A DNA stretch of 64,000 bases from an uncultured Holophagales bacterium (GCA_963842525.1 CAWJGT010000023.1:256001-320000); one strand, 5' to 3'; shown: positions 10,432 through 40,537, counted from the first letter of the stretch. Translations and numbers: made by a program. The notes: generated by a model not told the origin, from the sequence alone.

Positions 10432-10490
10432 CCTCACCCCCTGTCCCCCTCTCCCATCGCCCTCCCACCGACCGGGAGAGGGGGGACGTA
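10432..10490. repeat. Family-A REP-like half element (intergenic)
   Basis: CCTCACCCCCTGTCCCCCTCTCCCATCGCCCTCCCACCGACCGGGAGAGGGGGGACGTA, nearly identical to the arm at 31877. Confidence 0.9.
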
Positions 10491-13322: not shown

Positions 13323-15052
<1,730 letters not shown>

Positions 15053-19791: not shown

Positions 19792-20315
19792 GCGATCTCA
19801 GCTATCCCATTGGCAAAGAGGACGTGAAGCACGAGCTCACCGACGCCGAGCGGCGGGAGGCGATCGAGGTGATTGCCGGCACGCCTGCCCGTTTCCGTTC
19901 CGCCGTCGAGGGCCTCACGGACGAGCAGCTCGACACCCCATACCGGCCCGGTGGCTGGACCGTGCGCCAGCTCGTCCACCACCTGCCGGACAGTCACGTC
20001 AACGCCTACATCCGTTTCAAATTCGCTCTCGCGGAGGACGAGCCGACGATCAAGCCCTACGACCAGGATGTCTGGGCAGCTCTGCCGGATTCACGGACCA
20101 CGCCGGTCGAGGTGTCGTTGACCCTCCTCGACTCCCTCCACCAGCGCTGGGTGGAGGTGCTGCGCGGGATGAAGCCGGAAGATTTCCGGCGCCGGCTGCA
20201 TCATCCCGAACGGGGCATCCTGACGCTCGACGCGATGCTCAATTCGTACGCCTGGCACAGCCGACATCACGTGGCGCACGTCACGGCGCTGCGGGCACGG
20301 ATGGGATGGGGGTAG
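19788..20315 (+). CDS. YfiT family (DinB-like) thiol transferase
   Basis: LDTPYRPGGWTVRQLVHHLPDSH, IKPYDQ, YAWHSRHH. Confidence 0.92.
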   Translation: MSDLSYPIGKEDVKHELTDAERREAIEVIAGTPARFRSAVEGLTDEQLDTPYRPGGWTVRQLVHHLPDSHVNAYIRFKFALAEDEPTIKPYDQDVWAALPDSRTTPVEVSLTLLDSLHQRWVEVLRGMKPEDFRRRLHHPERGILTLDAMLNSYAWHSRHHVAHVTALRARMGWG

Positions 20316-23300
20316 CAGTCCGCCCAATCGCCTGAAGGAGACGGTCCGCCAGCACCCGGACGTTCTCCGGGTCCTCGATCGCGGTCACATGGTTGCCCGG
20401 CACGGGCACGATGTCGATCTCTCTAGTCAGGGCTGCCCAGCCATGGGACAGATCGCTGTCAGTCCCGTCCGGTTGCTCCTCGGCAGCGAAGAAGGTGACG
20501 CGGCCTGGATAGGGGGCTGGATGATCGGTACGCGCCACCTCCAAGTGAGCCTTGAACCGGGCGAGAAGACGGCGCGCGTTGTCGGGGGACCAGTCCGGCG
20601 GCAGGTCGCCCCGGCGCTTCGCCTGCTCGACCAGGGCGGCGACCGGATCGGCGGCGCGCCGCAGCTCGTCGCGGTCGGCCGGAAAATCGCCCAGCGCTTC
20701 GATCAGGAGATCGGCATCGCTCGCTCCCGGCCGGCCGGGCGGCTCGACGAGGCCGGTGTCGATCATCCCCAGGAAAGCCACCTCTTCGCCTTCGGCTCGG
20801 AGCTGGCGGGCCATTTCAAAGACGACCCGGCCGCCGAAGGACCAGCCTGCCAGGAGGTAGGGTCCGGCGGGCTGGACGGTCCGCACATGCCGCAGGTACT
20901 CCGCGGCGAGGCCGGCCAGGCTGCGCGAGGTCTCGGCGGGTGCCACGTCCTGGAGCCCCCAGACCGGCTGATCCAGGCCGAGGGCGCGCGCCAGGTCGAA
21001 ATAGGAGAGGACCTGGCCGCCGGCCGGATGGACCAGGAAAAGCGGCGGACGCGCTCCTCCCTCCTGAATGCGCACGAGCGGTGACTCCTCTCCTTCCGTC
21101 GCCTCCCGGCGCAGGAGCCGAGCCAGGTCCTCGACCGTGGGCGCCTGGAAGAGCGTCGCGAGCGGGAGCGTGCGATCCAGATCCTGCGCGATGCGGGCCA
21201 TCAGGCGGACGGCGAGCAGGGAGTGGCCGCCCAGGTCGAAGAAGTTGTCCGTGACTCCGACCGGCGCGGTCTCCAGCACCTCCTCCCAGATGCAGGCGAG
21301 ACGCAGCTCGAGACCGTCCCGAGGTGGCACCCGGAGGGCGGCGCGCTCGACCGTCGGCAGCAGGTCCGGCAGGGCGCGGCGGTCGACCTTGCCGTTGGGG
21401 TTGAGAGGCAGCCGGTCGAGCGGCACGAAGACGGACGGGACCATGTAGGCGGGAAGGCGTTCCCGCAGCCGCTCGCGCAGCTCGTCCAGAGCCGGAGGCT
21501 GGGCCGAATCGAGCACCACGAAGGCCACCACCCGCTTTTCTCCGCTCGGAGCATCGCGCCCCACGACCACCGACTCGCGCACGCCGGGCAGCCGGCCCAG
21601 CTCGGCCTCGATCTCGCCGGGCTCGACGCGATAGCCGCGGATCTTGATCTGCTGGTCGGCGCGACCGGCCGCCGCCACCTCGCCGTCGGGCAGGTAGCGG
21701 CCGAGGTCGCCGGTCAGGTAGACCCGATCGGCCGGATACCCCGTGAATGGATTGGCCACGAACCGCCTCTCGGTCTGCTCGGGGTCGTCCAGATAACCGT
21801 GCGCGAGGTGCGGGCTGCGGATGGCGATCTCGCCGACCTCCCCGATCCCTGCCAGTCCGGCACCGCGTGAGAGGACGAGAAGCTGGACGTCGCGCTTGCC
21901 GCGGCCCAGAGGCAGGATCTGCCGCTCGCGCGCCTCGCCCTCGCCTTCGAGGCACCCCTCCTCCACCAGGTGATAGCTCAGGGCGCGCTGGGATTCCGTG
22001 GCGCCGTAGACGTTCACGCAGACCGCCTGCGGAGCGAGCCGCCGGACACGGGCGACATCGCGCCGGGTCAGGATGTCGCCGGCGAGGACGGCGCAGCGCA
22101 GATCGGGGAGAACCTCACCCTCTCCCTCCGTCAGGAGCTGCGCCATGGCCGGGGTGAGGTGAGTGACGGTGATCCGCTCGTGCCGCATCCAGTCCGCGAG
22201 ATAGCCCGGCTCGCCGATCCGGCCGGGGTCGGGGATGCAGAGGGTCGCGCCGATCGACAGGGAGTAGAAGACATCGCGCTGGAGCGGGTCATGAGCGAGC
22301 CCCGAGAGCAGGGTGAAGCGGTCGGACTGGTGATAGCCCAGGACGTCCTGGTGCCAGGGGATGAAATGCGACATGGACCCGTGCGTCTGGAGGATCCCTT
22401 TCGGGACCCCGGTTGATCCCGAGGTGAAGGCCACGGCGGCGATATCGTGCGGACCGATGTGGGAAGGAAAGGCCGGCCCTCGCCCTGGGTTTACACCCTG
22501 GGCTACCGAATGCCGCCCTCCGGGCTCTTGAGAGCCGAGGATTCCAGAGCCCGGAGGGCGGAACTGGGTAGCCCCGGGTGTCAACCCGGGGCGAGTGATG
22601 GCCAGCCGGAACACCCCCTCGCCAGCCACATACTCCTCCACCACCGCCGGCAACGGCCCGGCCGCCTCGACGTGCAGCACGGCGCGCGGTCGGGCGAGGC
22701 GAAGAATGTCCACGAGGCGGGCCGGCGGGTAGACAGGGTCCAGGATGCCGAAGGCCGCACCGGACCGCAGAATGCCCAGCAGAGCCTGGATCAGCCCCGA
22801 GCTGCGATGAGCATAGACGGCCACCCGGTCCCCCTTGCCGATCCCCTCGGATCGCAAAAGGTCGGCCAGGTGGTCCACCGCCCGATCGAGCTCGCCGTAC
22901 GTCCAATCACCACAGGGCTCGGTGAGGGCGATACGCTCCGGATGGCGCCGCGCCTGCTCTGTAAAGAGGTCGTGGACCGCTCCCACCCAGAGTGGATCGA
23001 GACGCGCCTGCGGATCGGGCAGCACGGTCCGCGCCTCGACAGTCAGCAGCGAGTAGGTGTCGATGGGCGCTTCGGGCCGCTCCGCGATCTGGGCGACCAG
23101 GCAGGCGTACTGGCGCAGCATCTCCTCCATGCGATTCCGGTCGAAGAGGTCCGTGTTGTAGACCAGGTTCAGGATCAGGCCGTCCCCCCGCTCCGCCAGG
23201 TAGAGGGTGAGGTCGAACTTGGCGAGCACGCCGCCGGGTTCGTAGGGCTCGATCTCCAGCCCCGGCAGGTCGAGCCGGGCGGCCGGCGCGTTGAGCATGT

Positions 23301-26300
23301 TGAAAAGGACCTGGAAGAGCGACGGCCGCGACAGGTCGCGCTCCGGGCGCAGCTCCTCTAGAAGCTTTTCGAAGGGGACGTCCTGGTGGGCATAGGCCCC
23401 GAGGGCGGTCTCGCGCACCCGGCGGACCAGCTCCGGGAACGCCGGACGGCCCGAGAGGTCGGCGCGCAGCACCAGGGTGTTGAGGAAGCAGCCGATCAGC
23501 CCTTCGACCTCGGGCTGGGTACGGCCTGCGATGGGCGACCCCACGGCGAGGTCCTCCTGTCCGCTCAGGCGAGACAGCAGGATCTGGAACGCGGCAAGCA
23601 GGACCATGAAGAGCGACGCGCCCTGCGTCTGACCGATCCTCCGGAGGCGATCGACGAGGGCCGGCGGCAGGAGCCGCAGCTCCGAGGCGCCGTGGAAGGT
23701 CTGGACCGGCGGACGCGGCCGGTCGGCTGGGAGATCCAGAACCGGCGGCAGGCCACGCAGGCGCTCGCGCCAGTAGCCCACCTGGGATTCGAGCGCCTCG
23801 CCCGCGAGCCAGCCCCGCTGCCAGCGGGCGAAGTCGGTGTACTGGACCGGCGGCTCGGGCAGGATCTCGCCGCGATAGAGCGCGGCGATCTCGTGCGCCC
23901 AGAGCCCCATGGACCAGCCGTCGCAGGCGATGTGGTGGGTGAGGAAGAGTGCAGCGCTCTCGTTCCCGCCCAGCCGCACGAACAGGGCTCGGACCAGGGG
24001 GCCGCGTTCGAGGTCGAACGGCCGCAGCGCCTCCTCCCCCATCACCCGTCGCGCCTCCTCTTCTCGGACAGTTTCAGGGAGAGCCGCGAGATCGACCGTC
24101 GCCAGAAGGCTCGCAGGCCCGGGCTCGACCACCTGGAGCGGCTGGCCATCCTGGACCGGGAACCGCGTGCGCAGCGTCTCGTGCCGCCGCACGATCTCGC
24201 AGAGCGCCCGGTCGAGGGCCGCCGCGTCCAGGCCGCCGTGCAGCCGGAAGGCCGTCGGCATGTTGTAGGCCGCGCCGTCGATCTCGAGCTGCTGCAGGAA
24301 CCAGATCCGCTCCTGGGAGAAGGAAAGCGGCGCCGGACCGGCTCCTGGATCGCGACGGATCGTTGGCACGACGGCCGCCGCCGGATGGCGCGCCTCCAGC
24401 CAGGCCGCCAGACCCGCCACGGTCGGTGCATCGAAGAGGGCCGTCACGTGCAGCGTCTCGCCAAGGCGCCGCCGCAGACGATTGATGAGCACGGCGCCCT
24501 TGATCGAATCGCCGCCGAGCGCGAAGAAGTTGTCGTCCACGCCGAAGGGGACCCCCAGGGCTTCGCGCCAGAGCTCCGCGATCAACTCTTCGAGCGGCGT
24601 CTGCGGAGCGGTCCTCTCCTCTGTGCCGGCTTCGATGCCGACGAACGGGTCGGGCAGGGCACTGCGGTCGATCTTGCCGCTGGCGGTAAGCGGCAGGGCT
24701 TCCAGCTCCACGAAGATGGTCGGGAAGCATGTAGTCGGGGAGGCGGTGGCGGAGGAAAGTGTGGACCTCACCCCCTAGCCCCCTCTCCCATCGCCCCCCC
24801 ACCGACCGGGAGAGGGGGAACGTAGTGCTTGCAGGTGTGGCGATAGCAGGCGGCAAGCCCTCCAGGTGTTCCCGCAAGGCCGATGCCTGGACCTCGCCGG
24901 AGAGCTGAGCATGCGTCCCCCCTCTCCCGGTGGAAGAGGGGGCGATGGGAGAGGGGGACAGGGGGTGAGGACCCGGCACCACATACGCCACCAGCGCCAG
25001 CCCCCCGCCTCCCTGCGGCCGGGCCACGACCACGCACTGCCGCACGGCAGGGATGCTCGGCCACGACAGCGGTCACCTCTCCGACCTCGATGCGGAAGCC
25101 GCGGATCTTGACCTGATGGTCGCGCCTGCCCAGGAACTCCAGCACGCCATCGGGCAGGAGGCGAGCGAGGTCGCCGGTGCGATAGAGGCGGGCACCGGCC
25201 TCGAACGGGTCCGGCACGAAAGCCTCGGCGGTCCGTGCCGGATCGCCGAGATAGCCGCGGCCCACTCCCGTTCCGCCGATAAAGAGCTCACCGGCTGCAC
25301 CAATCGGCAGCGGACGCAAGGCAGCATCGAGCACGTGCAGCCGGATGTTGGCAAGCGGCCGGCCGATCGGAGTGACCACCGCGGAAGGACCCGGCGGAGT
25401 ACGCTTCAGGTGCTGGCTCACCCGGTCGGTGCACTCGGTCGGGCCGTAGGCATCGACCAGCGGGATGTGGGGATAGATCGCGTGCCAGCCGCGGGCGAGA
25501 TCAGGCGGCAGCGCCTCGCCGGTGGCGATCAGCCAGCGCAGCGCCTCGAGCCGTGGGTACGAATCGACCGCATGAAGCATGGCACCCAGGAGCGACGGCA
25601 CGACCTCCAGGACCGTGATCCGTTCGCGATCGGCCTCCTCCAGCAGGGAGACGGGATCGCGCACGACCTCGGTCCGGACGATCTGCACGCGGCCTCCCAC
25701 GAGCAGGGCCGCCAGGGACTGCCAGATGGAGATATCGAAGATCTGGGGAGCGGTCTGGGCGACCACGTCCTTCCCGGTCAGATCGAGACTGGCGATCCTG
25801 GCCCGCAGGTGGTTGAGCAGGCCGCGGTGGGTCAGCATCGCGCCCTTAGGTACCCCGGTCGAGCCCGACGTGAAGATCACATAGGCCAGGTTGTCCGGCA
25901 GAGGGCGGACGGGCAAGGCGGCGAGAGCCTCGTCGTTGCCAGAAGCCAGGAGTTGGGCGAGATCAATGATCTCGGGAGTCGGATAGGTGGCGGAAAAAGC
26001 CCCCGCAGGGGGCGCAGGCATAAAGCCTGGGGTTTCAACCCCAGGAAGGGAGTCCCCCCGATTTTCCCCAAGCCCCGAAGGGGCGCAGGCAGCTTCTCCA
26101 CCCACTCGGGGTTGGAACCCCGCTCCCGATGCCTCCGCCCCTTCGGGGCTTGGAATCAATATGGGCTGCTGTCCTGGGGTTGAAACCCCAGGCTTTATGC
26201 CGACGCCCCGTTGGGGCTTCCCCACCCGATCCGCCGCTGAGTCGGGTGATGAAGAGACGATCACCCACCGCGCACCGCTCTGCTCCAGGATCTGCTCCCG

Positions 26301-29300
26301 CCGGCGCGGCGGGTGGGCAGGAGCGAGAGGCAGGTAGACGCTACCAGCCTCCAAGATCGCCAGCAGAGCGATCAGATATTCGGGGCTCCGCTCGCCGAGG
26401 ACGCCAACAACCATCTCGGGACCGACACCGCGGGCGATCAGCCGGCGGGCGGCACGTTTGACGCTCTCGCGCCAACTCGGCATAGGTGAGCGTCCGGCCC
26501 TCGCAGGCCACCGCGATTACTCCCGGCGTGAGCTCGGCCTGGCGCGCGAACAGCTCTGGGAAGCAGGCTTCCGACAGCTCGGTGGCCCGATCGTTCCATT
26601 CGATCAGCGCCTGATGGCGCTCGCCTTCCGTCAGCAACGGCAGGTCAGTCAGCGAGCACCCGGGATCAGCCAGGAGCCCGCGCAGCAGCACCTGGAGCTG
26701 GCCGATCAGGCGCTGGACGGTCGCGCCGTCGAACAGGGCCGTGTTGTAGCGCCACTCGCCGGAAAGGCCGTCCTCCCCCGCTTCGAAGTGGAGCACCATG
26801 TCGAATTTCGTGGTCCGGCTCTCGACCTCCGGGATTTCCAGGACCAGGCCGGGCAGGTCGATCCCGGCGGCCTGGTCGCCCGGCATCTCAAGGACCTGGA
26901 AGAGAACCTGGAAGAGCGGCGTATGGGAGAGAGAGCGCTCCGGCCGCAGCTCGGCGACGAGCTTCTCGAACGGCATGTCCTGATGGGCAAAGGCCGAGAG
27001 CGCTGTCTCGCGCACACGTCCGATCAGCTCCAGGCCGCCCATGTCGGCCGATATCGGGACGCGCAGCACCAGGGAGTTGACGAAGAAACCGATCAGTCCC
27101 TCGATCTCGCCGCGATTGCGGTTTGCGCTCGGCACCCCGACCACGATGTCGCCCCCGCCCGTGAGCCGGTGGAGCAACGCGTCGAACGCGGCGAGGAGGG
27201 TCATGAACAGCGTCGAGCCGGCGCGGCGGCCGAAGGCGTGCAGGGCGGCCGTCAGCTCGGCGTGCAGCACCACCGGTCGCGCATCGCCTTCGAAGGACTG
27301 GGCGGCCGGCCTTGGGCGGTCGAGAGGCAGGTCGAGCACCGCAGGGGCGCCGGCCAAGCGCTCGCGCCAGAAGCGGAGGTACTCCTCCAGGACCTCTCCC
27401 CGCAGCCACTCCCGCTGCCAGAGAGCGAAGTCCGCGTACTGGATCGGCAGCTCGGGCAGGGGCGCCAGCTCGCGCGATCCACCTTGCCGGTAGAAGGTGG
27501 CCAGCTCGCGGATCAGGATGCCCATGGACCAGCCGTCCGAGACCACGTGGTGCATGGTCAGAAGCGCCAGATGCTCGGTCCTTGAGAGCCGCAACAGGGC
27601 GGCGCGCAGCAACGGGCCATCGACCAGGTCGAACGGCCGCTCGGCCTCCTCGCAGGCCAGCCGGCCGGCTTCCGTCTCCCTGAGCCCGGCCGGCAGGACT
27701 TCCAGATCGACCTGCGGCAGCGTGCCGGACCGCGGCGGATCGATCACCTGGACGGGATGCCCTTCAACCGTCGGGAACCGGGTGCGCAGACTCTCGTGAC
27801 GGGCCACGACGGCGTCCAGTCTGCGCCCGAGCGCCGCCGCATCGAGGGTCCCGGTCAGCCGGACCACCATCGGCATGTTGTAGGTCGAGGTCCCGGGCTG
27901 GAGCTGTTCCAGGAACCAGAGCCGCTCCTGGGCGAAGGAGAGCGGCAGGTCCGCCGAGTCGTCCCCATCGCGCGGCACGATCGGCGGTGCCTGCCGGGCC
28001 GGATCGGCGCGCAGGAGGCCGCCGATCCGCAGGGCCAGACCGGCGATCGTCGGCGCTTCGAAGAGCCAGCGCAGTGGGATCTCGACGCCGAATACCGAGC
28101 GCACCCGCGAGACCGCCTGGATGGCGAGCAGCGAATGCCCGCCGAGCGCGAAAAAGTCGCTCTCGATCCCCGGGCGCTCGATGCCGAGCACATCGGTCCA
28201 GACCGCCGCGAGCATCTCCTCCACCGGATCGCGCGGCGCCGTGGTCCCCTCCTCCACCCCCTCCGATTCCAGATCCAGCCGCGCCAGAACACCGCGGTCC
28301 GGCTTGCCGTTCGGCGTGAGCGGCATGCTCGGAAGGACCAGGATCGCCGCGGGCAGCATGTACTCGGGGAGGCGCGCCGCGAGCCAGTCCCGTACCCGGG
28401 CGGCCACCCCCTCCCCCGACCCCTCCCCCGCGCGTCCACCATCCCCCACCCCGAGCGGGAGAGGGGCGCCACCACCCAGCCCGCTCTCCTTCCCCCTCTC
28501 CCGTTCGGGGAGGGAGGTCGGGGGACGCACGGGAGAGGGGGCCAGGGGGTGAGGGCTCGGCACCACGTAGGCCACGAGGCCGCGCCCGCCCGGCAGACCC
28601 TCCCGCACACCGACGACCGCCTCCCGGAGGCCCGGACAGCCGGAGAGCGCCGCCTCCACCTCGCCGGGCTCGATGCGGAACCCGCGGACCTTCACCTGGC
28701 GGTCGATCCTTCCCACGAAGCGGAGGTTGCCGTCGGGCAGCCAGAGGACCCGGTCGCCGGTGCGGTAGAGCCGCGCCCCGGGCTCGCCCTGGAGAGTGCC
28801 CGACGGATCAGGCACGAAGCGCTCGGCCGTCACGTCCGGCCGGCCGAGATAGCCGCGCGCCAGGCCGTCGCCGCCGGTCAAGAGCTCCCCAGGGACACCC
28901 GGCGGCACCGGCTGGAACGCCTCGTCCAGGACCTGAACGGTCGTGCCGGGGATCGGCTGGCCGATCGGCACCGGGCTCCCGGGCGGGATCGGCTCGCGGA
29001 TCGTGAACATGGTCGTGTGCGTGGTGTTCTCGGTCGGGCCGTAGCCGTTGATCAGCGTGCACCCCGGCATCTCGGCCAGCATCCGGTTGACCGCTTCGGG
29101 CGCAAGGACATCGCCGCCGGGCAGGGCCTCCGCGAGGTCGCGCAGGATTTCGATCCCGTGCGTCACGATCTGATGGAAAAGCCCCGTGGTCGGCCAGAGG
29201 ATGGTTACGGCGTGCCGCTCCAGCAGCCCGCGCAGCTCCCCCAGAGAGAGGGCTTCGCCCGGTCCCAGGACCAGCCGGCCGCCGTTCAGCAGCATCCCCC

Positions 29301-32300
29301 AGATCTCCGCCGTGGAGCCGTCGAAGGTGATCGGCGAAATCTGGAGCATGGTCGCGTCCGGCGGGAACCGGCCAAGAGTCAGCCGCACGATGCCGCGGTG
29401 CTCGATCGCAACGGCCTTGGGCACGCCGGTCGAGCCGGAGGTGAACATGACGTAGGCGAGGCCCTCACCCCCCTGGCCCCCCTCTCCCAACCGCACTCCC
29501 ACCTCCCGGGAGAGGGGGGAAAAAGCAGGAGAGATCTCGGAGTTGGAGAGAGCCACATCTCCCCTCTCCCGGAGGTTCGGGAGTGCGGATGGGAGAGGGG
29601 CCGGGGGTGAGGGGTCTGGGCCGACCGTGCGCGCTCCTGGGATCTCGAGGCTCTGCGCGCCCTCCGTCACGATGAGCCCGACCCCTGCCTGCGCCACCAT
29701 CTGCGCCAGCCGCTCCTGCGGATCGCCGAGGTCGAGCGGGACGTACGCACCTCCCGCCTCGAGGAGCGCCAGGAACAGGACGATCCGCTCGATCGAGGGT
29801 CCGAGAGCGATGCCCACCGGAGACTCAGGTCCTACGCCCTGGGCACGCAGCCAGTGGGCCACCTGGTTGGCCCGGACGTTCAGCGCGCCGTAGCTCAGGC
29901 AGGCGTCGCCGTCGACCAGGGCGATCCGGTCCGGCTCTTCCACGGCCTGGCGCTCGAAAAGACGGTGGACAGGGATTTCGGTATCCGGGACCGACCCGCC
30001 GTCTCCCCACGCGCCGAGTTGACGCAGCTCGGTCTCGGACAGCAGAGAGGCCTCCTCGTGGAGCACGTCCGGCGCGGAAACCATGGCGGCAAGCGCGCGA
30101 ACGTAGGTGCCGGCCATGGCCTCGGCCTGGCGGGAATCGACCTCCGATTCCTGATAGCTCAGCCGCAAGTCGAGCCGAGTGCCCGACGGATCGAGCTGAA
30201 AGCTCGGACCCAGCGGAAAGTCGGTCTCCTCGTAGCCGTACCAGTCGAGCAGCTCGACGCCCGGGGCCTCCTGAACCGCCTGGTAGACGTGGAAGTGGAC
30301 GAAGTTGAAGACCGTGTCGAAGAGCGGTCCGCCGTCGCGCTCCGCCTGCAACTCGGCCAGCGGAAAGCGCCGGTGCGGCAGCATCTCCCTTTCCGTCTCG
30401 AAGGTCGCGCGGACCAGGCCGGCCCAGCTCTCGGCGCCCAGATGTGCCCGGAACGGCAGGGTGTTGAGGAAGAGCCCCAGTGCCCGGTCGCTCCCCTCGG
30501 TCTCGGGCCGGCCGTTGGCGACCAACCCGGTGATCACCTCGCGGCGGCCCGTCCACCGGGAGAGCACCTTGAGATGGGCCGCGAGCAGGACGCTCTTCAA
30601 GGGGACGCCGACCGCGCGGGAAACTGCCCGCAGACCGTCGAGGGTCTCGCCGGGGATGGCCACGACCACATCGCGCGCCCTGCCGGCGAGCTTCCCTTCC
30701 ACGGGCCAGCGCGGCAGCCGGCTCGGCTCGGCCCCGGCAAGCCGTTCCCGCCAGAAGCCGCGGGTCTCGGACGATGCGAGGGCCATCTGTTCCAGCCGCA
30801 CGAAGTCGCGGAACGCGGCGGGCGGCGGCTCCTCGTTTACGGGCTTCTCGGAGACATAGCCGCGGAACAGCTCGGCGAGGAGCGACGCCGCGCTCCAGCC
30901 GTCGAGCACCGAGTGATGGAAGCTCAGGGTCAGTTGAAAGACGTCCTCGTCCAGCCGGTGGACGTGGAAGCGCACCAGCGGCGGCCGGCTCCAGGAGAAG
31001 CCGCGGTGCCGCTCCGACTCCAGCCAGGCCGCCACGACTTCCGCCCGCTCGCCCTCCGGCAGGCCCCGCAAGTCCTCCAGCTCGAACGGCGCCTCGACCT
31101 CTCCATGGACGAGCTGGATCGGCTCGTCGAACGAATTCAGATCGAACGAGGTCCGCAGCACCGGGTGGCGGGCCAGGGCGCTCTCGACCGCGAGACGCAG
31201 CCGTGCGGCATCGAAGGGAGCGCGCAGGCGGGCGCTGAAGACGTCGTGGTAGACCGCTGTCTCCGGGCTGTACTCGGTGTGGAAGAGCATGCCGGCCTGG
31301 AGGCGGGCTAGGGGGTAGGCGTCGATGATGGAGACCTCACCCCCTGTCCCCCTCTCCCATCTCCCACCCTCCCATCCCCGGGAGAGGGGGGACGTAGTTG
31401 TTGCCTGTGTGGCGAGCTCGCGGAACGGCTCCGAATGCGTTCCCCCTCTCCCGGCGGGGGATGGAAGGGAGATGGGAGAGGGGGCCAGGGGGTGAGGACT
31501 CCCGCCCACCTCCCGCGCCAGCTCCCGCAGCACCGGATGATGAAAGAGCTGCTGAAGGCTCAGCTCGATCCCACGTTCGCGCGCCAGGGCCAGCACCCGC
31601 AGGCTCAGGATCGAGTCGCCGCCCAGGGCGAAGAAGCTGTCCCGCGCCCCCACCCGCTCGACGCCCAGGACTTCCTCCCAGACCTCGGCGAGCGTCTCCT
31701 CCACCAGCGTAGCCGGCGGCTCGAAGCCCTCCGTGGCCACCACCTCGGGCCGGACCTCCAGCCGCGCGAGAGCCCGCCGGTCCAGCTTGCCGTTGGGTGT
31801 GAGCGGCAGCGCGTCGACCTCCACGAAGGCGGCCGGAATCATGTGGTCGGGGAGACGGATGCGGAGGAAAGCCAGAACCTCACCCCCTGTCCCCCTCTCC
31901 CATCGCCCCCCCACCGACCGGGAGAGGGGGGACGTAGTGCTGGCTGGTGTGGCAATAGCGGGCGTCAAGTCCTCGGGGCGTTCCGCGGGAACAACATCCT
32001 GCGTCCCCATATGCTCCCGTGAGGCCGATGCTTGGATCTCGCCGGAGAGCTCCGGACGCGTCCCCCCTCTCCCGGTCGGGGGGAGGGTGATGGGAGAGGG
32101 GGACAGGGGGTGAGGCACCACATACGCCACCAGCATCCGTCCCTCTCCGCCCACCCGCTCCCGTGCCAGAACCGCGGCCTCGGCCACGGCCGGATGCGCC
32201 GCAAGGGCCGCTTCGATCTCCCCCGGCTCGATACGGAAGCCGCGGATCTTGAGCTGGTCGTCGCTTCGCCCAAGGTACTGGAGGTCCCCGCCGGGAAGCC

Positions 32301-35144
32301 GCCGGGCGAGGTCGCCCGAACGGTAGAGCCGCGCCCCGGGCTCGGAGGCATCGGGGACGAAGCGCTCGGCCGTCAGCTCCGGACGGCCGAGATAGCCGCG
32401 CGCCAGGCCGCGCCCACCCACGCAGATCTCGCCGGGCACGAGGTCCGGCACCGGCCGGCCGTGGCCGTCGAGGAGCGAGATCCGGAGGTCCGGGATCGGC
32501 TCTCCGATCATGCTGCCGGGCGCATTCGCGAGGTCGGCCTGCACGATCCGCCGGAAGGTCACATGCACGGTCGTCTCGGTGATGCCGTACATGTTGGCCA
32601 GCCGGGGCCGCTCGCCGCCATGCCGCTCGATCCAGGGCGCCAGGACCGGCAGCTCCAACGCCTCGCCGCCGAAGATCACCCACCGCAGGGACGGCCCCAC
32701 GGGGACTGCGCCAGCATGGTCCCGCTCCCACTGCACAAGTTGGCGGAAGGCCGACGGGGTCTGGTTGAGGACGGTCACCCGCTCCTCCGCCAGCAGGCGG
32801 GCCAAGGCCTCGGGCGAGCGGCTCACCCAGAACGGCACCACCACGAGCCGGCCGCCCCACGCCAGGGCGCCCCAGATCTCCCACACCGAGAAGTCGAACG
32901 CAAAGGAGTGGAAGAGCGTCCAGACGTCCTGGGACGAGAAGCCGAACCGGGGCTGGCAGGCGGCGAGCAGGCGGGCCACCTCGGCGTGACGGACCACGAC
33001 ACCCTTGGGCCGCCCCGTCGAGCCGGAGGTGTAGATCACATACGCGGCGTTGTCCTCCTCTGCACCACCCGCGAGGCGTTCGGGGTTTTCCAGGTCCTGC
33101 AGGTCATCGAGTCGCACGAGGGCCAGGCGGTCCGCCCCGGGCAGGCGCCCGGCAAGCTCATCCCGGGTAACTACGACACGGACGCCCGAATCCTCCACAA
33201 GGAACGCCAGCCGCTCGGTCGGAAGGTCCGGATCAAGTGGGACATAGGCGCCGCCGGCCTTGAGGATGCCGAGGATGCCGAGCGGGGTCTCGGGCGAGCG
33301 CTGGAGGCAGAGCCCGACCCGGATCTCCGGGCCGACGCCGAGGCGCCGGAGCCGGCGGGCCAGCCGGTTCGAGCAGCGCGTCGAGCTCGCCATAGGTCGT
33401 CCCGCGTCCCTCGAACAAGACGGCGACCGCTCGAGGGTCCCGGTCCGCAGCGGCTTCGAAGAGGCGGTGCAGAGCCCTCTCCCCCTGACCCCCTCTCCCG
33501 TGCGGCCCCCATTCCTCCACCCCGAACGGGAGAGGGGGAACGCTGTGGTGATCCTCGGAAGAAACAACTGACGGTTGGGTGGCGGCGCCCCTCTCCCGCT
33601 CGGGATGGGGGGTGGTGGACGCGCGGGGGAGGGGTCGGGGGAGGGGGCTCACAACGGCCCTGATCTCCTCCTCCGTCAGCATCGGCAGCTCGGAAAGCCG
33701 GCGCTCCGGATCGGCCGCCATCCCGGCGAGGAGCGCCTGAAAATGGCCGGCGATGCGGGCGGCGGCCGGGGCATCGAAAAGGTCGGTGCTGTACTCGAAA
33801 TAGCCCTCGAGGTCGTCGCCCGCCTCGGTGACCGACAGCATCAGGTCGTAGCGCGCCGTCCGCGCCTCGGTATCCAACGCGGCAAGCTCGACGCCGGGCA
33901 GGTGGAACGCGACGGGTGGCGTGTTCTGGAAGGACAGGACCACCTGGACGAGCGGCGGGCGCAGCGGATCGCGGTCAATCCGCAGCTCCTCGATCAGCTT
34001 TTCGAAAGGGAGGTCCTGGTGTGCCTGGGCGCCGACGGTCGCCTCGCGGGTGCGCGCCAGGAGGGTGCGGACCGAGGGGTCGCCGGACAGATCCGCCCGC
34101 AGGACCAGGGTATTCACGAAGAGCCCGATCAGTCCTTCGAAGCTCCGCCCGGTTGCGCCCGGCCACCGGCGAGCCCACGAGCAGGTCGGTCGCGCCGGAG
34201 TAGCGGTGCAGCAGGATATCGAGCCCGGCGAGAAGGATCATGAAGAGCGTCGCTCCCTCGCCGCGGGCCAGCGCCCGCAGCTCTGCCGGGAGATCTCCCG
34301 CCAGAGTGAAGAGCTGGTCCGCACCGCCGGAGCCGCGGACGGCCGGCCAGGGACGGGTGACCGGCAGCTCGACGACCGGCGGCGCCCCGTCGAGAGCCTG
34401 CCTCCAGTAGCCAAGCTGCGCCTCCAGCCGCTCGCCTTCGAGCCACTCCCGCTGCCAGACGGCGAAGTCGGGCACCTGGACCGGCAGCTCCGGCAGCGGC
34501 GAGGGCCTCTCCAGCAGGCGCGCTTCGTAGAGGGCCGCGAAATCGCGCACGAACACGGCGATCGACCAGCCGTCGGACACGATGTGATGCATCGTCACCA
34601 GCGCGACGTGCTCCTCCGGCCCGCAGCGCAGCAGGGCGGCCCGCACCAGCCGGTCCCGGGAGAGGTCGAACGGCAGCAGCCCCTCCTCCTCGACGATGCG
34701 CTCCACCTCGGCCGAACGGACCTCCGCGGGCAGGCCAGCCAGGTCGACGATCGGCGCCGGCAGCGGCTCCGGCGGGCGGACGACCTGGACCGGCCGCCCC
34801 CCCACGACATCGAAGCCGGTCCGCAGGCTCTCCTGCCGCCGCACCAGCTCGTCGAAGGCCCAGCGCAGCGCCGGAATGTCGAGGCGTCCCTGGAAACGGG
34901 TGGCCGACGAGATGTTCCATGCCGGGTTGCGCGGCTGCCACTGGTCCATGAACCAGAGCCGCTGCTGGGCGAAGGAGAGCGGCAGCTCACGGTCGCGCGG
35001 CACCGGCCGCAGCTCGAGCTCGTCCGGCTCGCGTTCGGCCGCCTTCCGCCGCAAGCGAAGCATGAGCAACGCCCGCTGCTCCGGCGTGAGGCCGGCCAGG
35101 CTATCGTTCAAAGCGGTCGAATCGATGACTTCGGGGCTGCTCAT
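20281..35144 (-). CDS. Four-module NRPS C-A-T-C-A-T-C-A-T-C-A-T-TE (probably one gene broken by frameshifts)
   Basis: C motifs HHIVSDG, HHSVLDG, HHVVSDG, HHIACDG; four TSGSTG A3 motifs; T motifs GGDSI, GGHSL, GGDSI, GGHSL; TE GWSFGG; spread over overlapping ORFs 33975-35144, 33233-34117, 26341-33567, 24768-26483, 24074-25045 and 20281-24771. Confidence 0.93.
22481..22593. repeat. Family-B palindromic element in frame in NRPS A4 (loop before motif A3)
   Basis: CCCTGGGTTTACACCCTGGGCTAC...GTAGCCCCGGGTGTCAACCCGGG; encodes RPGLTPGATQFRPPGS...PGGRHSVAQGVNPGR. Confidence 0.85.
24765..24970. repeat. Family-A composite in frame in the NRPS A3 C-terminal subdomain
   Basis: Encodes PHPLSPSP...GGRWERGLGGEV between LVAYVV and LRHRLPDYM. 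Confidence 0.9.
25997..26219. repeat. Family-B composite palindrome in frame in NRPS A3 (loop before motif A3)
   Basis: GGCATAAAGCCTGGGGTTTCAACCCCAGGA and its inverse TCCTGGGGTTGAAACCCCAGGCTTTATGCC; AAGCCCCGAAGGGGCG and its inverse. Confidence 0.92.
28407..28555. repeat. Family-A composite in frame in the NRPS A2 C-terminal subdomain
   Basis: Encodes PHPLAPSP...RAGEGSGEG between LVAYVVP and RLPEYMLP; one arm matches intergenic 45807-45877. Confidence 0.9.
29462..29614. repeat. Family-A composite in frame in NRPS A2, directly before LAYVMFTSGSTG
   Basis: Encodes PSPPAPLPSALP...GEGGQGGEG; one arm matches intergenic 2631-2688. Confidence 0.9.
31334..31497. repeat. Family-A composite in frame in the NRPS T1-C2 linker
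   Basis: Encodes PHPLAPSP...WERGTGGEV; near-copy of intergenic 14819-14979. Confidence 0.92.
31877..32115. repeat. Family-A composite in frame in the NRPS A1 C-terminal subdomain
   Basis: About 80 aa PHPLSPSP...WERGTGGEV between LVAYVV and LRIRLPDHMIP. Confidence 0.92.
33475..33647. repeat. Family-A composite in frame in the NRPS C1-A1 linker
   Basis: Encodes [20 protein letters not shown]...GRGGQGE before LHRLFE; inverted relative to 28407-28555. Confidence 0.88.
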
Positions 35145-35359
35145 GGCCAGAGGGAATGACCGGAGGGAAGCCGGTCAGAGGAAGAACGTAGACGGTCTCA
35201 CAGATCTCTCATGGATTCAACCGGGGCCTCCGCGGCTCGCCGCGCTTTCTCTACGGAGTGACCTAAAAGGCATGGATTGGAGCGGCTCCTTGCCGCTTTT
35301 CACCCTACGATCCGACACTGACGCCGGAGGGGCTGCGAGCGGTTTTTGCCGTCGCACCT

Positions 35360-40478: not shown

Positions 40479-40537
40479 TTCCCCCTCTCCCGGGGGGTCG
40501 CGAGGGCGGATGGGAGAGGGGGTCAGGGGGTGAGGGG
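40479..40537. repeat. Family-A half element (intergenic)
   Basis: CCCCCTCTCCCGG...GGATGGGAGAGGGGGTCAGGGGGTGAGGGG. Confidence 0.85.

Follow-up and report, generated by a model that had tools for sequence, protein, structure and literature searches.

The NRPS gene and its insertions

The window, the whole 64,000-nt stretch of DNA that was analysed, contains an NRPS gene on the minus strand (20284..35150). Pfam searches gave the domain order C-A1-T-C-A2-T-C-A3-T-C-A4-T-TE. The gene is collinear, at 65-78% nucleotide identity, with a single 4620-aa ORF of a same-genus genome (G002), in which none of the four modules carries an insert. Extra DNA in the window's NRPS was located in the a8-a9 loops of A1, A2 and A3 and in the a2-a3 regions of A2, A3 and A4. 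By tblastn, the gene ran through frames -3, -1, -2, -3, -1 and -2, giving five successive single-base frame changes. Three of these fall in the A3 region, and the sequence quality or functional state of A3 is therefore uncertain.

Adenylation domain A1 carries an insert in its a8-a9 loop, a 238-nt palindromic repeat copy (31878..32115, minus strand). The arms of this copy (31878-31934 and 32059-32115) are 57 nt long, 95% complementary and separated by 124 nt. The translation is continuous with the NRPS frame, the RNA fold has an energy of -172.3 kcal/mol (z -11.8), and the Pfam match to AMP-binding_C runs to position 37 of 76 in the profile and breaks off just ahead of the insert. A3 holds, in its a8-a9 loop, a sister copy of 205 nt (24766..24970, minus strand) with 60-nt arms (24763-24822 and 24914-24973; 87% complementary, 91 nt between) and a fold of -162.3 kcal/mol (z -12.8). 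The local frame of this copy is open throughout, but out of register with the NRPS frames on its upstream and downstream sides. Both inserts lie where the original prediction had placed them and, as it had proposed, have inverted arms and a spacer in common. They are set apart by indels of 33 nt (spacer) and 6 nt (left junction) and by approximately 20% substitutions.

No Pfam domain was found in the 68-79 inserted residues of the A domains, and ORFs with inserts returned only NRPS domains. The insert is probably translated. Homing-like transfer, which had also been proposed, is unsupported because no endonuclease or other ORF was found by Pfam in the element, a palindrome plus spacer of 205-238 nt.

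Further copies were found in the same gene, all on the minus strand. A2 had been taken as the insert-free comparator; its a8-a9 loop in fact holds a decayed copy directly after LVAYVVPS (approximately 28404..28554), recognised by partial inverted repeats and an arm match with three mismatches at 28528-28554 and missing from the G002 orthologue. A 163-nt copy of the main subfamily lies in frame in the T1-C2 linker (31335..31497), where orthologues have a native linker instead. Inverted repeats also marked two degenerate, family-like palindromes with approximate limits. One lies in A2, where it separates core motifs a2 and a3 (29470..29640), translates as PDPSPPAPLPS...GEGGQGGEG ahead of LAYVMFTSGSTG and is extra DNA relative to G002. 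The other lies in the C-A1 linker (33480..33650), and the NRPS frame changes across it.

Short native a8-a9 loops were found in the A1 orthologues of G001, G002 and G005 and in the A3 orthologues of G001 and G002. The inserts therefore postdate the divergence of the modules. Identity between the A cores of this NRPS is only 37-40%, with mutual ranks of 104th to 253rd among the paralogues. The strong difference previously described between the A1 and A3 cores was borne out (37% amino acid identity, rank 253 of 312 tblastn matches).

A dispersed palindromic repeat family

A genome-wide arm search of the 9.95-Mb Acidobacteriota genome returned 419 arm matches and 121 paired copies, spread over many contigs. 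The window contains 11 arm matches against 0 expected. Paired copies range from 65 to 294 nt, with size modes at 163 and approximately 202 nt, and 111 of the 121 have the canonical ends CCTCACC...GGTGAGG. Spacer subfamilies had 44 and 33 members, alongside three clusters of two and 17 singletons. Among MAGs carrying the labels Thermoanaerobaculia, Holophagales or Acidobacteriota, exact 27-nt arms occurred in at least 99 stretches. The inserts in A1 and A3 are thus copies of a non-coding, hairpin-forming mobile repeat of MITE/REP-like type, with 57-nt inverted arms and a variable spacer.

Most copies are intergenic, 101 of 121 lacking coding sequence on both sides. Long GC3-rich ORFs contain 19 paired copies, several of them with Pfam domains on both sides; 12 of these 19 copies lie in NRPS genes, and hosts of the others include a sulfatase, a PBP, a kinase and an Lhr helicase. 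The translated start is PHPL(S/A/T)PSPI in 12 of the 19. Of 20 copies flanked at both ends by coding sequence, 16 preserve the frame. Stop-free readings make up 31-43% of the total, against 28-31% in shuffles, and the copies are therefore not intrinsically open.

Bacterial MITEs include Correia, ERIC and Nezha. The family resembles such elements in having terminal inverted repeats (arms of 57-60 nt, 87-95% complementary in A1 and A3), in being small, non-autonomous and dispersed in many copies, and in forming subfamilies with common internal sequence and no transposase gene (as MITEs are outlined in PMC10969869). Unlike them, it shows no target-site duplication: direct repeats of 2, 3, 4 and 5 nt were found at 4, 1, 1 and 0 of 111 copies. 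Instead, the two bases flanking each end tend to be complementary (62% and 55%). No conserved insertion target was found in the family beyond RA|..|TY.

REP/REPIN elements of RAYT systems are likewise hairpin repeats that lack target duplications and often lie within or next to other palindromes; palindromic flanks of 14 and 21 nt were seen at two copies here. The genome has 20 matches to PF01797 (Y1_Tnp), 8 of which score at least 77 bits (approximately 8 full-length genes for Y1 transposases). A REP is far shorter than these arms, however, and no arm was found within approximately 1.5 kb of Y1_Tnp at the 4 of 20 loci fetched (exact pattern with two degenerate positions). Eight arm pairs are spaced 0.5-4.7 kb apart; the one inspected (1072 nt) held tandem repeats and no obvious transposase, and no autonomous partner with the same arms was found in it. 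The repeat was presumably mobilised by a transposase.

Kinship and flanks of the A1 and A3 copies

In a tree of 109 copies, those of A1 and A3 are sisters (support 0.963). Their central spacers are identical at 72 of 91 columns, the next best copy reaching 54 of 111, and form a separate 2-member spacer cluster. Genome-wide, each matches only the other (82% over 50 nt, 87.5% over 40 nt, E approximately 1e-6), all other matches having E values of at least 0.014. A search of 91 other genomes of the family gave no meaningful match to either spacer.

The flanks had been described as identical. The 21-mer GGCACCACATACGCCACCAGC does occur at both sites (24975 and 32114) and nowhere else in 9.95 Mb, but the junctions are not identical. 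The first GG of this 21-mer belongs to the element in A1. The element is preceded by GTGGTG in A1 and by GTGGTGCCGGGT in A3, where the six extra bases CCGGGT stand between GTGGTG and the element. Because the left junctions differ, conversion requires a later 6-nt indel. On the other side, GCGGAGGAAAG is present at 24749 and 31861, with 17 occurrences genome-wide.

The left co-identical tract of A1 (32116..32134, minus strand) comprises the LVAYVV codons plus one base. The identical 19-mer stands at 24977-24995 in A3, and these are its only two sites in the genome. A3 equals A1 at 18 of 18 bases of the LVAYVV codons, which none of the 69 other LVAYVV domains does, although 10 reach 17 of 18. 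The TAT codon, previously called uncommon, is used at this position by 40 of 70 LVAYVV A domains, and TAT:TAC ratios in the NRPS are 8:23 and 12:17; the rarer codon common to both flanks is GCG. The GCG-TAT pair is native to A3, being present in the G001 orthologue. In the left proximal columns, A1 shares 19 of 20 positions with A3 but 14 with an A1 orthologue, and A3 shares 16 of the 20 with an A3 orthologue. All four A3-derived sites equal A1, and the left side is therefore a mosaic. The split on this side gave a permutation p of 0.044, with only approximately 9 informative sites near the element.

On the right, a tract of A3-type states in A1 (FLRIRLPDHMIPAAFVE; 31819..31877, end approximate, minus strand) was delimited by alignment with three A1 and two A3 orthologues. 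Among 26 informative sites, the first six are of A3 type, followed by 15 of A1-orthologue type against 5 of A3 type. The max-chi-square permutation test gave p 0.003. Fisher's test gave p 0.0033 (7:1 vs 4:14), with distance bins set after the alignment had been seen; only the permutation test corrects for the choice of split. At the protein level, FLRIRLPDHMIPAAFVE of A1 resembles FLRRRLPASMIPAAFVE of the A3 orthologue, not FAAERLPEAMVPGRFVW or FVAGRLPEVMVPSRYVA of A1 orthologues. The matching right flank of A3 (FLRHRLPDYMLP...; 24707..24765, minus strand) keeps the A3-orthologue states, with its first four informative sites in the state of its own orthologues. The right side has the features of a conversion tract: contiguous donor-type states in A1, own-orthologue states outside them, and an A3 that is unchanged there. 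The flank of A3 also contains a single frame-shifting base that all ten other sequences in the alignment lack.

Flank identity was compared with the background of other A domains. In the proximal 45 nt on the left, A3 ranked first (ungapped) or tied for top (0.733, gapped) in likeness to A1 among 200 A domains, and in the proximal right flank it ranked 7th and 8th of 287. The distal flanks of A3 ranked below the median (157 of 200 and 246 of 287). Identity beside the element thus exceeds background, as the original prediction implied; in single windows, however, two other A domains share the 73.3% of A3 on the left, and on the right one has 84% identity to A1 where A3 has 80%.

The three A1 orthologues may form one clade, and the polarity of the A3-like states of A1 is therefore not secured by an outgroup.

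Origin of the paired inserts

The best reading, with a probability of about 0.7, is gene conversion, most likely from A3 to A1, in which a short stretch of flank was converted along with the element. Spread between modules rather than independent insertion, as originally proposed, is supported by the empty orthologue loops, the sister copies, the A3-type states in the right flank and the flank ranks. The event would be old, the spacers being 79-87% identical with a 33-nt indel, and the flank signal rests on few sites.

Two separate transpositions of one rare subfamily copy into the A1 and A3 loops, with flank likeness due to the LVAYVV / LP.YM.P consensus or to target preference, would account for junctions that lie 6 nt apart, and small spacer clusters are common in the family. 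The a8-a9 loop has also been struck repeatedly, in separate events. The G001 orthologue of A2 has an intact copy there in another phase and position, a metagenome A domain (L178) has one directly after LVAYVA, C3:726931 has a remnant and A2 its decayed copy. These cases raise the prior for independent insertion, and a common insertion site alone therefore proves nothing. Separate transpositions leave unexplained, however, the six consecutive A3-orthologue-state sites beside the element in A1, followed by reversion, and the six base-for-base identical codons within a genome-unique 21-mer. Insertion targets in the family are conserved only in the motif given above, and it is improbable that both members of a two-member subfamily would reach equivalent loops of one protein among approximately 280 A domains. 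We regard this explanation as rather unlikely. Less probable still is that a third, now unseen A domain gave a flank-element-flank segment to both A1 and A3 by conversion. The left-flank LVAYVVP is native to neither module, the orthologues having LVAW(I/Y)VP and LAAYLVA, and the left flank mixes A1-type and A3-type bases; A2 also has LVAYVVP beside its copy, where its orthologues have LAAFAV or LAAFVV. Against such a donor, no A domain of the genome fits the left flanks better than A1 and A3 fit each other, neither this genome nor 91 genomes of the family yielded a further copy of the spacer, and A3 keeps A3-orthologue states in its right flank.

A family copy in the same loop of three neighbouring modules could suggest an insert already present before A1, A2 and A3 duplicated and inherited by all three. 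The low identity and ranks of the A cores argue against it, and the empty orthologous loops in G002 (all four modules), G001 (A1, A3) and G005 (A1) already refute it unless every one of them lost the element precisely; it is very improbable. Equally slight is the chance of an assembly artefact, in which chimeric or collapsed repeats put the same element into two modules. The genome looks metagenome-assembled (34 contigs, 3.4% contamination), and the NRPS has its five frame changes. The approximately 20% difference between spacers and the 33-nt indel show that the copies are not a collapsed repeat, however, and each copy is collinear with the G002 orthologue on both its flanks. In one public soil run, which may be the source sample, small contigs match 24945-25027 and 32131-32288 without differences; the former spans the A3 junction but reaches only 26 letters into the element.

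Copies landing in frame and stop-free in permissive protein loops would persist and be read as Pro/Gly/Ser-rich stretches. Under gene conversion from A3 to A1, one copy would have entered the a8-a9 loop of A3 after the lineage had diverged from the congeners with sequenced genomes. Non-allelic gene conversion would then have carried a segment of approximately 317 nt, made up of approximately 19 nt of left flank, the element and approximately 59 nt of right flank, to the corresponding position in A1, replacing the native loop and a9 motif region there. The present differences between A1 and A3 (the spacer and left-junction indels and the substitutions) would stem from later changes. Both the direction and this order of events are our most plausible reconstruction.

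The closest analogue of the repeat is the Rickettsia palindromic elements, described as short (approximately 150 nt), multicopy palindromes, many of them in frame in unrelated protein genes (PMC10969869). Copies here are likewise in frame in unrelated genes and may be read as extra peptide where the fold tolerates it. The likeness is one of description; the host here belongs to another phylum (Acidobacteriota), most copies are intergenic and not intrinsically open, and NRPS genes are the main coding hosts. Conversion-borne spread between paralogous domains, as A1 and A3 probably exemplify, does not figure in the passages on these elements drawn on from that source. In exchanges between NRPS modules, Acore is mostly replaced and Asub stays native (Baunach et al. 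2021, PMC8097286, as excerpted). The present case resembles these in that a stretch of one module is more like another module than like its orthologue, and in its detection by comparing orthologues with paralogues. It differs from the exchanges in those excerpts in that the tract, of approximately 0.3 kb, lies in Asub and is centred on a mobile repeat, with the specificity-conferring core unchanged. Auxiliary domains naturally interrupt A domains between a8-a9 and a2-a3 (PMC11355689, PMC8097286), which speaks for tolerance of insertions there, and PMC11355689 names M, KR or Ox domains at these positions. The same two sites are occupied in this NRPS, but by 50-80 low-complexity residues with no Pfam domain rather than by a catalytic domain. 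Three other A domains of the genome carry 762-861 nt in the a8-a9 loop.

The locus is a neat case of genome evolution by a mechanism that is not new. A wider role is doubtful but conceivable: copies at equivalent permissive loops (a8-a9, a2-a3, linkers) of diverged modules might act as portable homology patches that seed conversion and crossing-over, so that the family would drive module shuffling in NRPS-rich Acidobacteriota, the A3-to-A1 tract would be one frozen example, and loop expansions could be a first step to interrupted A domains. If the conversion reading is true, inter-module recombination can move a repeat together with a piece of the A9 motif region between modules, a testable route for the creation of module-to-module homology. 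Annotators would be warned that A domains which look split or odd in these genomes may contain translated repeats. In soil Acidobacteriota, selfish palindromic repeats would then colonise the giant NRPS genes at the very loops that NRPS engineers use for domain insertion, marking insertion sites that are naturally tolerated.

Repeats in the NRPS gene and in the genome

On the minus strand of the window, the source genome (9.95 Mb, 68% G+C, 34 contigs) carries an NRPS gene that runs from about 35150 to 20284 and has the domain order C-A1-T-C-A2-T-C-A3-T-C-A4-T-TE, as assigned using Pfam and tblastn with an orthologue. The adenylation domains A1 and A3 contain inserts at 31878-32115 and 24766-24970, respectively, in the a8-a9 loop, named after the core motifs of the NRPS literature. 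Arm mapping bore out the insert positions of the original prediction. The A1 insert has 57-nt arms (31878-31934 and 32059-32115; 95% complementary) and the A3 insert 60-nt arms (24763-24822 and 24914-24973; 87% complementary). Folded as RNA, each insert formed one long hairpin (-172.3 kcal/mol, z -11.8 for A1; -162.3 kcal/mol, z -12.8 for A3), and 0 of 200 shuffles folded equally well. The Pfam AMP-binding_C match of A1 was interrupted at profile position 37 of 76.

Further repeats were mapped in the same gene. A 163-nt family copy is located in the T1-C2 linker (31335-31497), in place of approximately 30 residues retained in the orthologous loci L032, L033 and L036 (...GPFSL..P.DRAALP..L.DAYPLA); here a replacement, and not just an insertion, has occurred. 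A2 had been proposed as an insert-free comparator, wrongly, as its own a8-a9 loop contains a decayed copy after LVAYVVPS (approximately 28404-28554). Degenerate relatives of the family are found between a2 and a3 of A2 (approximately 29470-29640) and in the C-A1 linker (approximately 33480-33650). A different palindrome of 223 nt lies in frame between a2 and a3 of A3 (25997-26219; arms 26002-26055 and 26163-26216). One of its arms (26173-26218, plus strand) matched Rfam RF01687 (Acido-Lenti-1 RNA) at 38.8 bits (gathering score 37), the other (25998-26045, minus strand) matched at 31.8 bits, and 33 arm matches were found in the genome. The RF01687 'sRNA' motif is here the terminal repeat of a dispersed element within an NRPS ORF. 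A third repeat, a 133-nt hairpin with 61-nt arms and an 11-nt loop, lies in frame between a2 and a3 of A4 (22471-22603) and gave 91 BLAST matches in the genome, 25 of them of at least 100 nt.

The 27-nt arm end of the family occurred 11 times in the window at up to 3 mismatches, with 0 expected. Window copies include a 58-nt minimal hairpin (10432-10489), a 163-nt copy (14820-14982) and a lone arm (40509-40535) upstream of a valyl-tRNA synthetase domain that starts at ORF residue 279. Searching the genome with the 57-nt arm returned 419 matches and 121 paired elements of 65-294 nt, with size modes at 163 nt (16 copies) and approximately 202 nt. By spacer, they fell into two large subfamilies of 44 and 33 members and six small clusters, leaving 17 singletons. 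A 2-nt repeat was present at 4 of 111 copies, and target-site duplication was not seen. The two bases beyond the element ends are instead often complementary (62% and 55%), typically as RA/.../TY. Two 163-nt copies (C12:61234-61396 and C3:73175-73337) are flanked by perfectly palindromic host DNA of 14 and 21 nt, which looks like either insertion into the centre of a hairpin or a longer palindrome in those copies.

The exact arm was present in at least 99 public MAG stretches labelled Thermoanaerobaculia, Holophagales or Acidobacteriota and, among the matches listed, in one Gemmatimonadales stretch; this distribution makes the host an acidobacterium. Rfam held no family for the element, giving only sub-threshold miRNA-hairpin matches, and a literature search on MITEs, NRPS genes and Acidobacteria returned no description of such a repeat. 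No autonomous partner with the family arms was found at the one of 8 wide arm pairs inspected, and no link to a RAYT transposase at the 4 loci checked. A 55-aa peptide of the element matched seven longer proteins in the protein database, six apparently from this genome and the seventh a helicase on a 6.4-kb ENA contig; these are too few for gauging the spread of the element.

Copies within reading frames

Long ORFs with a flank GC3 of at least 0.8 contained 19 of the 121 paired copies. Twelve of these 19 start PHPL(S/A/T)PSPI and end ...GGRWERG.GGE when translated. NRPS genes, a large target because the genome has approximately 298 A-domain matches, host 12 of the 19 (two in the window and 10 of the 17 others). 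The remaining hosts include genes for a sulfatase, a PBP1C-like protein, a Ser/Thr kinase, an Lhr helicase, a DUF4350 protein and a WGR protein. Several in-ORF copies have domains on both sides. Where coding-like sequence flanks a copy on either side on one strand (20 copies), the frame was preserved in 16. Stop-free readings made up 31-43% for the element vs 28-31% for shuffled copies. The element is not intrinsically open, and the in-frame set is therefore attributed to selection after insertion, not to design. In paralogous A domains that are 75-90% identical over approximately 1 kb, copies at C20:60433-60595, C30:22984-23146 and C9:1337751-1337916 occupy an identical site (DTTYSTGS.VERGR/.../PRPEPSIG). 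The C9 spacer is unlike that of the C20 and C30 copies, which may reflect spacer replacement by recombination between element copies.

Alignment of the window gene with the NRPS protein of G002, a genome of the same genus, by tblastn passed through frames -3, -1, -2, -3, -1 and -2. The five changes, all in the same direction, lie near 34141, 33480-33650, 26463, 25060 and 24720, three of them in or beside A3. Each of the four inspected was one extra window base relative to the aligned orthologue(s). They may represent sequencing error or pseudogene decay. The only public run found, from soil DNA, contained a 0.09 share of the sampled words; among RNA runs, none with window words was listed. Contigs from the soil run covered the window as scattered pieces of 83-198 nt at a depth of 2-4; none bridged a junction by 31 letters on each side.

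Age, kinship and flanks of the A1 and A3 copies

The strong divergence of the A domains noted in the original prediction was confirmed, the cores being 37-40% identical at the protein level and ranking 104th to 253rd among each other's paralogues. The G002 NRPS is collinear with the window gene (65-78% nucleotide identity), is encoded by a single 4620-aa ORF, and has a shorter stretch at each repeat-bearing place. Orthologues of A1 in the related genomes G001, G002 and G005 have short native loops, RLVAW(I/Y)VPRP...ELR.F, as do A3 orthologues in G001 and G002, ALAAYLVARR..DP.DLRSFLR. Judged against these orthologues, both inserts are younger than the divergence of the modules. Inheritance from a module duplication was excluded, because the orthologous loops are empty and the cores only 37-40% identical.

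With the 57-nt arms removed, the A1 spacer matched that of A3 (82% over 50 nt and 87.5% over 40 nt) and neither had another such partner in the genome, all other matches there having E values of at least 0.014. Nothing meaningful was found in 91 other family genomes, where four matches of 20-30 nt had E values of 0.0055-0.009. In a tree covering each of the 109 copies of at least 150 nt, the two were sisters with a support of 0.963. Their central spacers were identical in 72 of 91 aligned columns, the next best pairs reaching 54 of 111 and 44 of 91. The spacer edges resemble those of the main subfamilies, so that the A1/A3 type is considered a diverged family member, not foreign DNA. By these comparisons the two copies have an exclusive common origin.

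The flanking 21-mer named in the original prediction was indeed found only at the A1 and A3 sites in the genome. The 18 bases encoding LVAYVV are the same in A1 and A3; among 69 other LVAYVV domains, none matched A1 at 18/18 and 10 reached 17/18. TAT had been put forward as a rare-codon marker and was rejected, as it is used in 40 of 70 LVAYVV domains; at this tyrosine it is a local codon preference. The TAT share of tyrosine codons in two long window NRPS ORFs was 8/31 and 12/29. GCG is the uncommon codon that both flanks share; the pair GCG-TAT belongs natively to A3, as seen in the G001 orthologue.

All A domains of the genome were ranked by identity to A1. On the left, A3 ranked 1st (ungapped) to 2nd (gapped) of 200 over the proximal 45 nt and 157th of 200 from -105 to -46. 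An extra base that follows LPDYMLP in A3 called for a gapped comparison of the right flank. Here A3 ranked 8th of 287 over the 21 nt before LP, 7th over the first 45 nt from LP and 246th over the next 60 nt.

Informative sites of A1 were scored X where they had the state of both A3 orthologues and O where they had that shared by the three A1 orthologues; this polarity has no outgroup, since all of these A1 orthologues may belong to a single clade. The first six informative sites of the A1 right flank were X X X X X X, and those beyond 15 O vs 5 X. A3 has its own states at those right-flank sites (O O O O, where O denotes the state of its own orthologues). A max-chi-square permutation test gave p 0.003 for the right flank and p 0.044 for the left, and Fisher's test on self-chosen bins gave p 0.0033 (7:1 vs 4:14), from few informative sites. 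In the right flank the A1 protein reads FLRIRLPDHMIPAAFVE, vs FLRRRLPASMIPAAFVE in the A3 orthologue and FAAERLPEAMVPGRFVW and FVAGRLPEVMVPSRYVA in A1 orthologues. The right end of the tract in A1 is near GTGGAG/GTCGAC, approximately 59 nt from the element. Over the left 20 nt, A1-type and A3-type bases are intermixed in a mosaic, as would fit patchy repair or a more complicated history.

Probable gene conversion between modules

Mosaic flanks of this kind are the mark of non-allelic gene conversion, and A3 is the likely donor of the converted tract. We therefore favour, at a probability of about 0.7 and on evidence that is good but not conclusive, the reading that gene conversion moved one copy out of A3 into A1 together with a short co-converted tract. 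Spread between modules with such a tract had been predicted, and the mosaic flanks with their permutation values, together with the sister relationship of the copies, support it. The accompanying term 'homing-like' does not apply, because neither an endonuclease nor an intein is present. The left junctions differ by six bases (GTGGTG/CCTCACC in A1 vs GTGGTGCCGGGT/CCTCACC in A3), and a 33-nt indel distinguishes the two spacers, so the conversion event would be old and would require later indels.

The shared site alone is no evidence of conversion, because the loop has been entered independently elsewhere. The A2 orthologue of the congener G001 (locus L044, contig C202, approximately 298-445) contains an intact 148-nt family copy in its a8-a9 loop, in another phase and position, after LAAFVVMRD and read as LTPRPPLPSPPLPPGEG...GGQGVR; the G002 orthologue of A2 has no copy in this loop. 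On a metagenome contig from another organism (locus L178, 3118-3283) a 166-nt copy directly follows LVAYVA and is read PHPLAPSPI...WERGPGGE. Its A domain has 72% DNA identity to A1 and is equally close to several paralogues. L178 was the only one of 76 loci kept in the metagenome scan with the element at the matched loop; the scan patterns included element peptides, and 1/76 is not a frequency. The A domain at C3:726931 contains a remnant of the element in its a8-a9 loop. This loop exceeds 100 nt in 8 of approximately 279 paired A domains of the genome, namely A1, A2, A3, C3:726931, the unrelated C34:701668 and three of 762-861 nt.

Excerpts of PMC11355689 and PMC8097286 describe a8-a9 and a2-a3 as known sites of interrupted A domains, which is why copies survive there. 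The family behaves like the Rickettsia palindromic elements, as far as these are covered in excerpts of PMC10969869. It is also like MITEs in general, but differs in the absent target duplication and in having no known partner. Recombination between NRPS modules is well known. In the module exchanges described in excerpts of PMC8097286, Acore is swapped and Asub stays native; here, in contrast, a 0.3-kb tract within Asub was involved, carrying a mobile repeat. The feature is real and belongs to a new repeat family with a known kind of behaviour, to which the present analysis adds the probable inter-module conversion, dating by orthologues and the finding that the a8-a9 loop is used recurrently.
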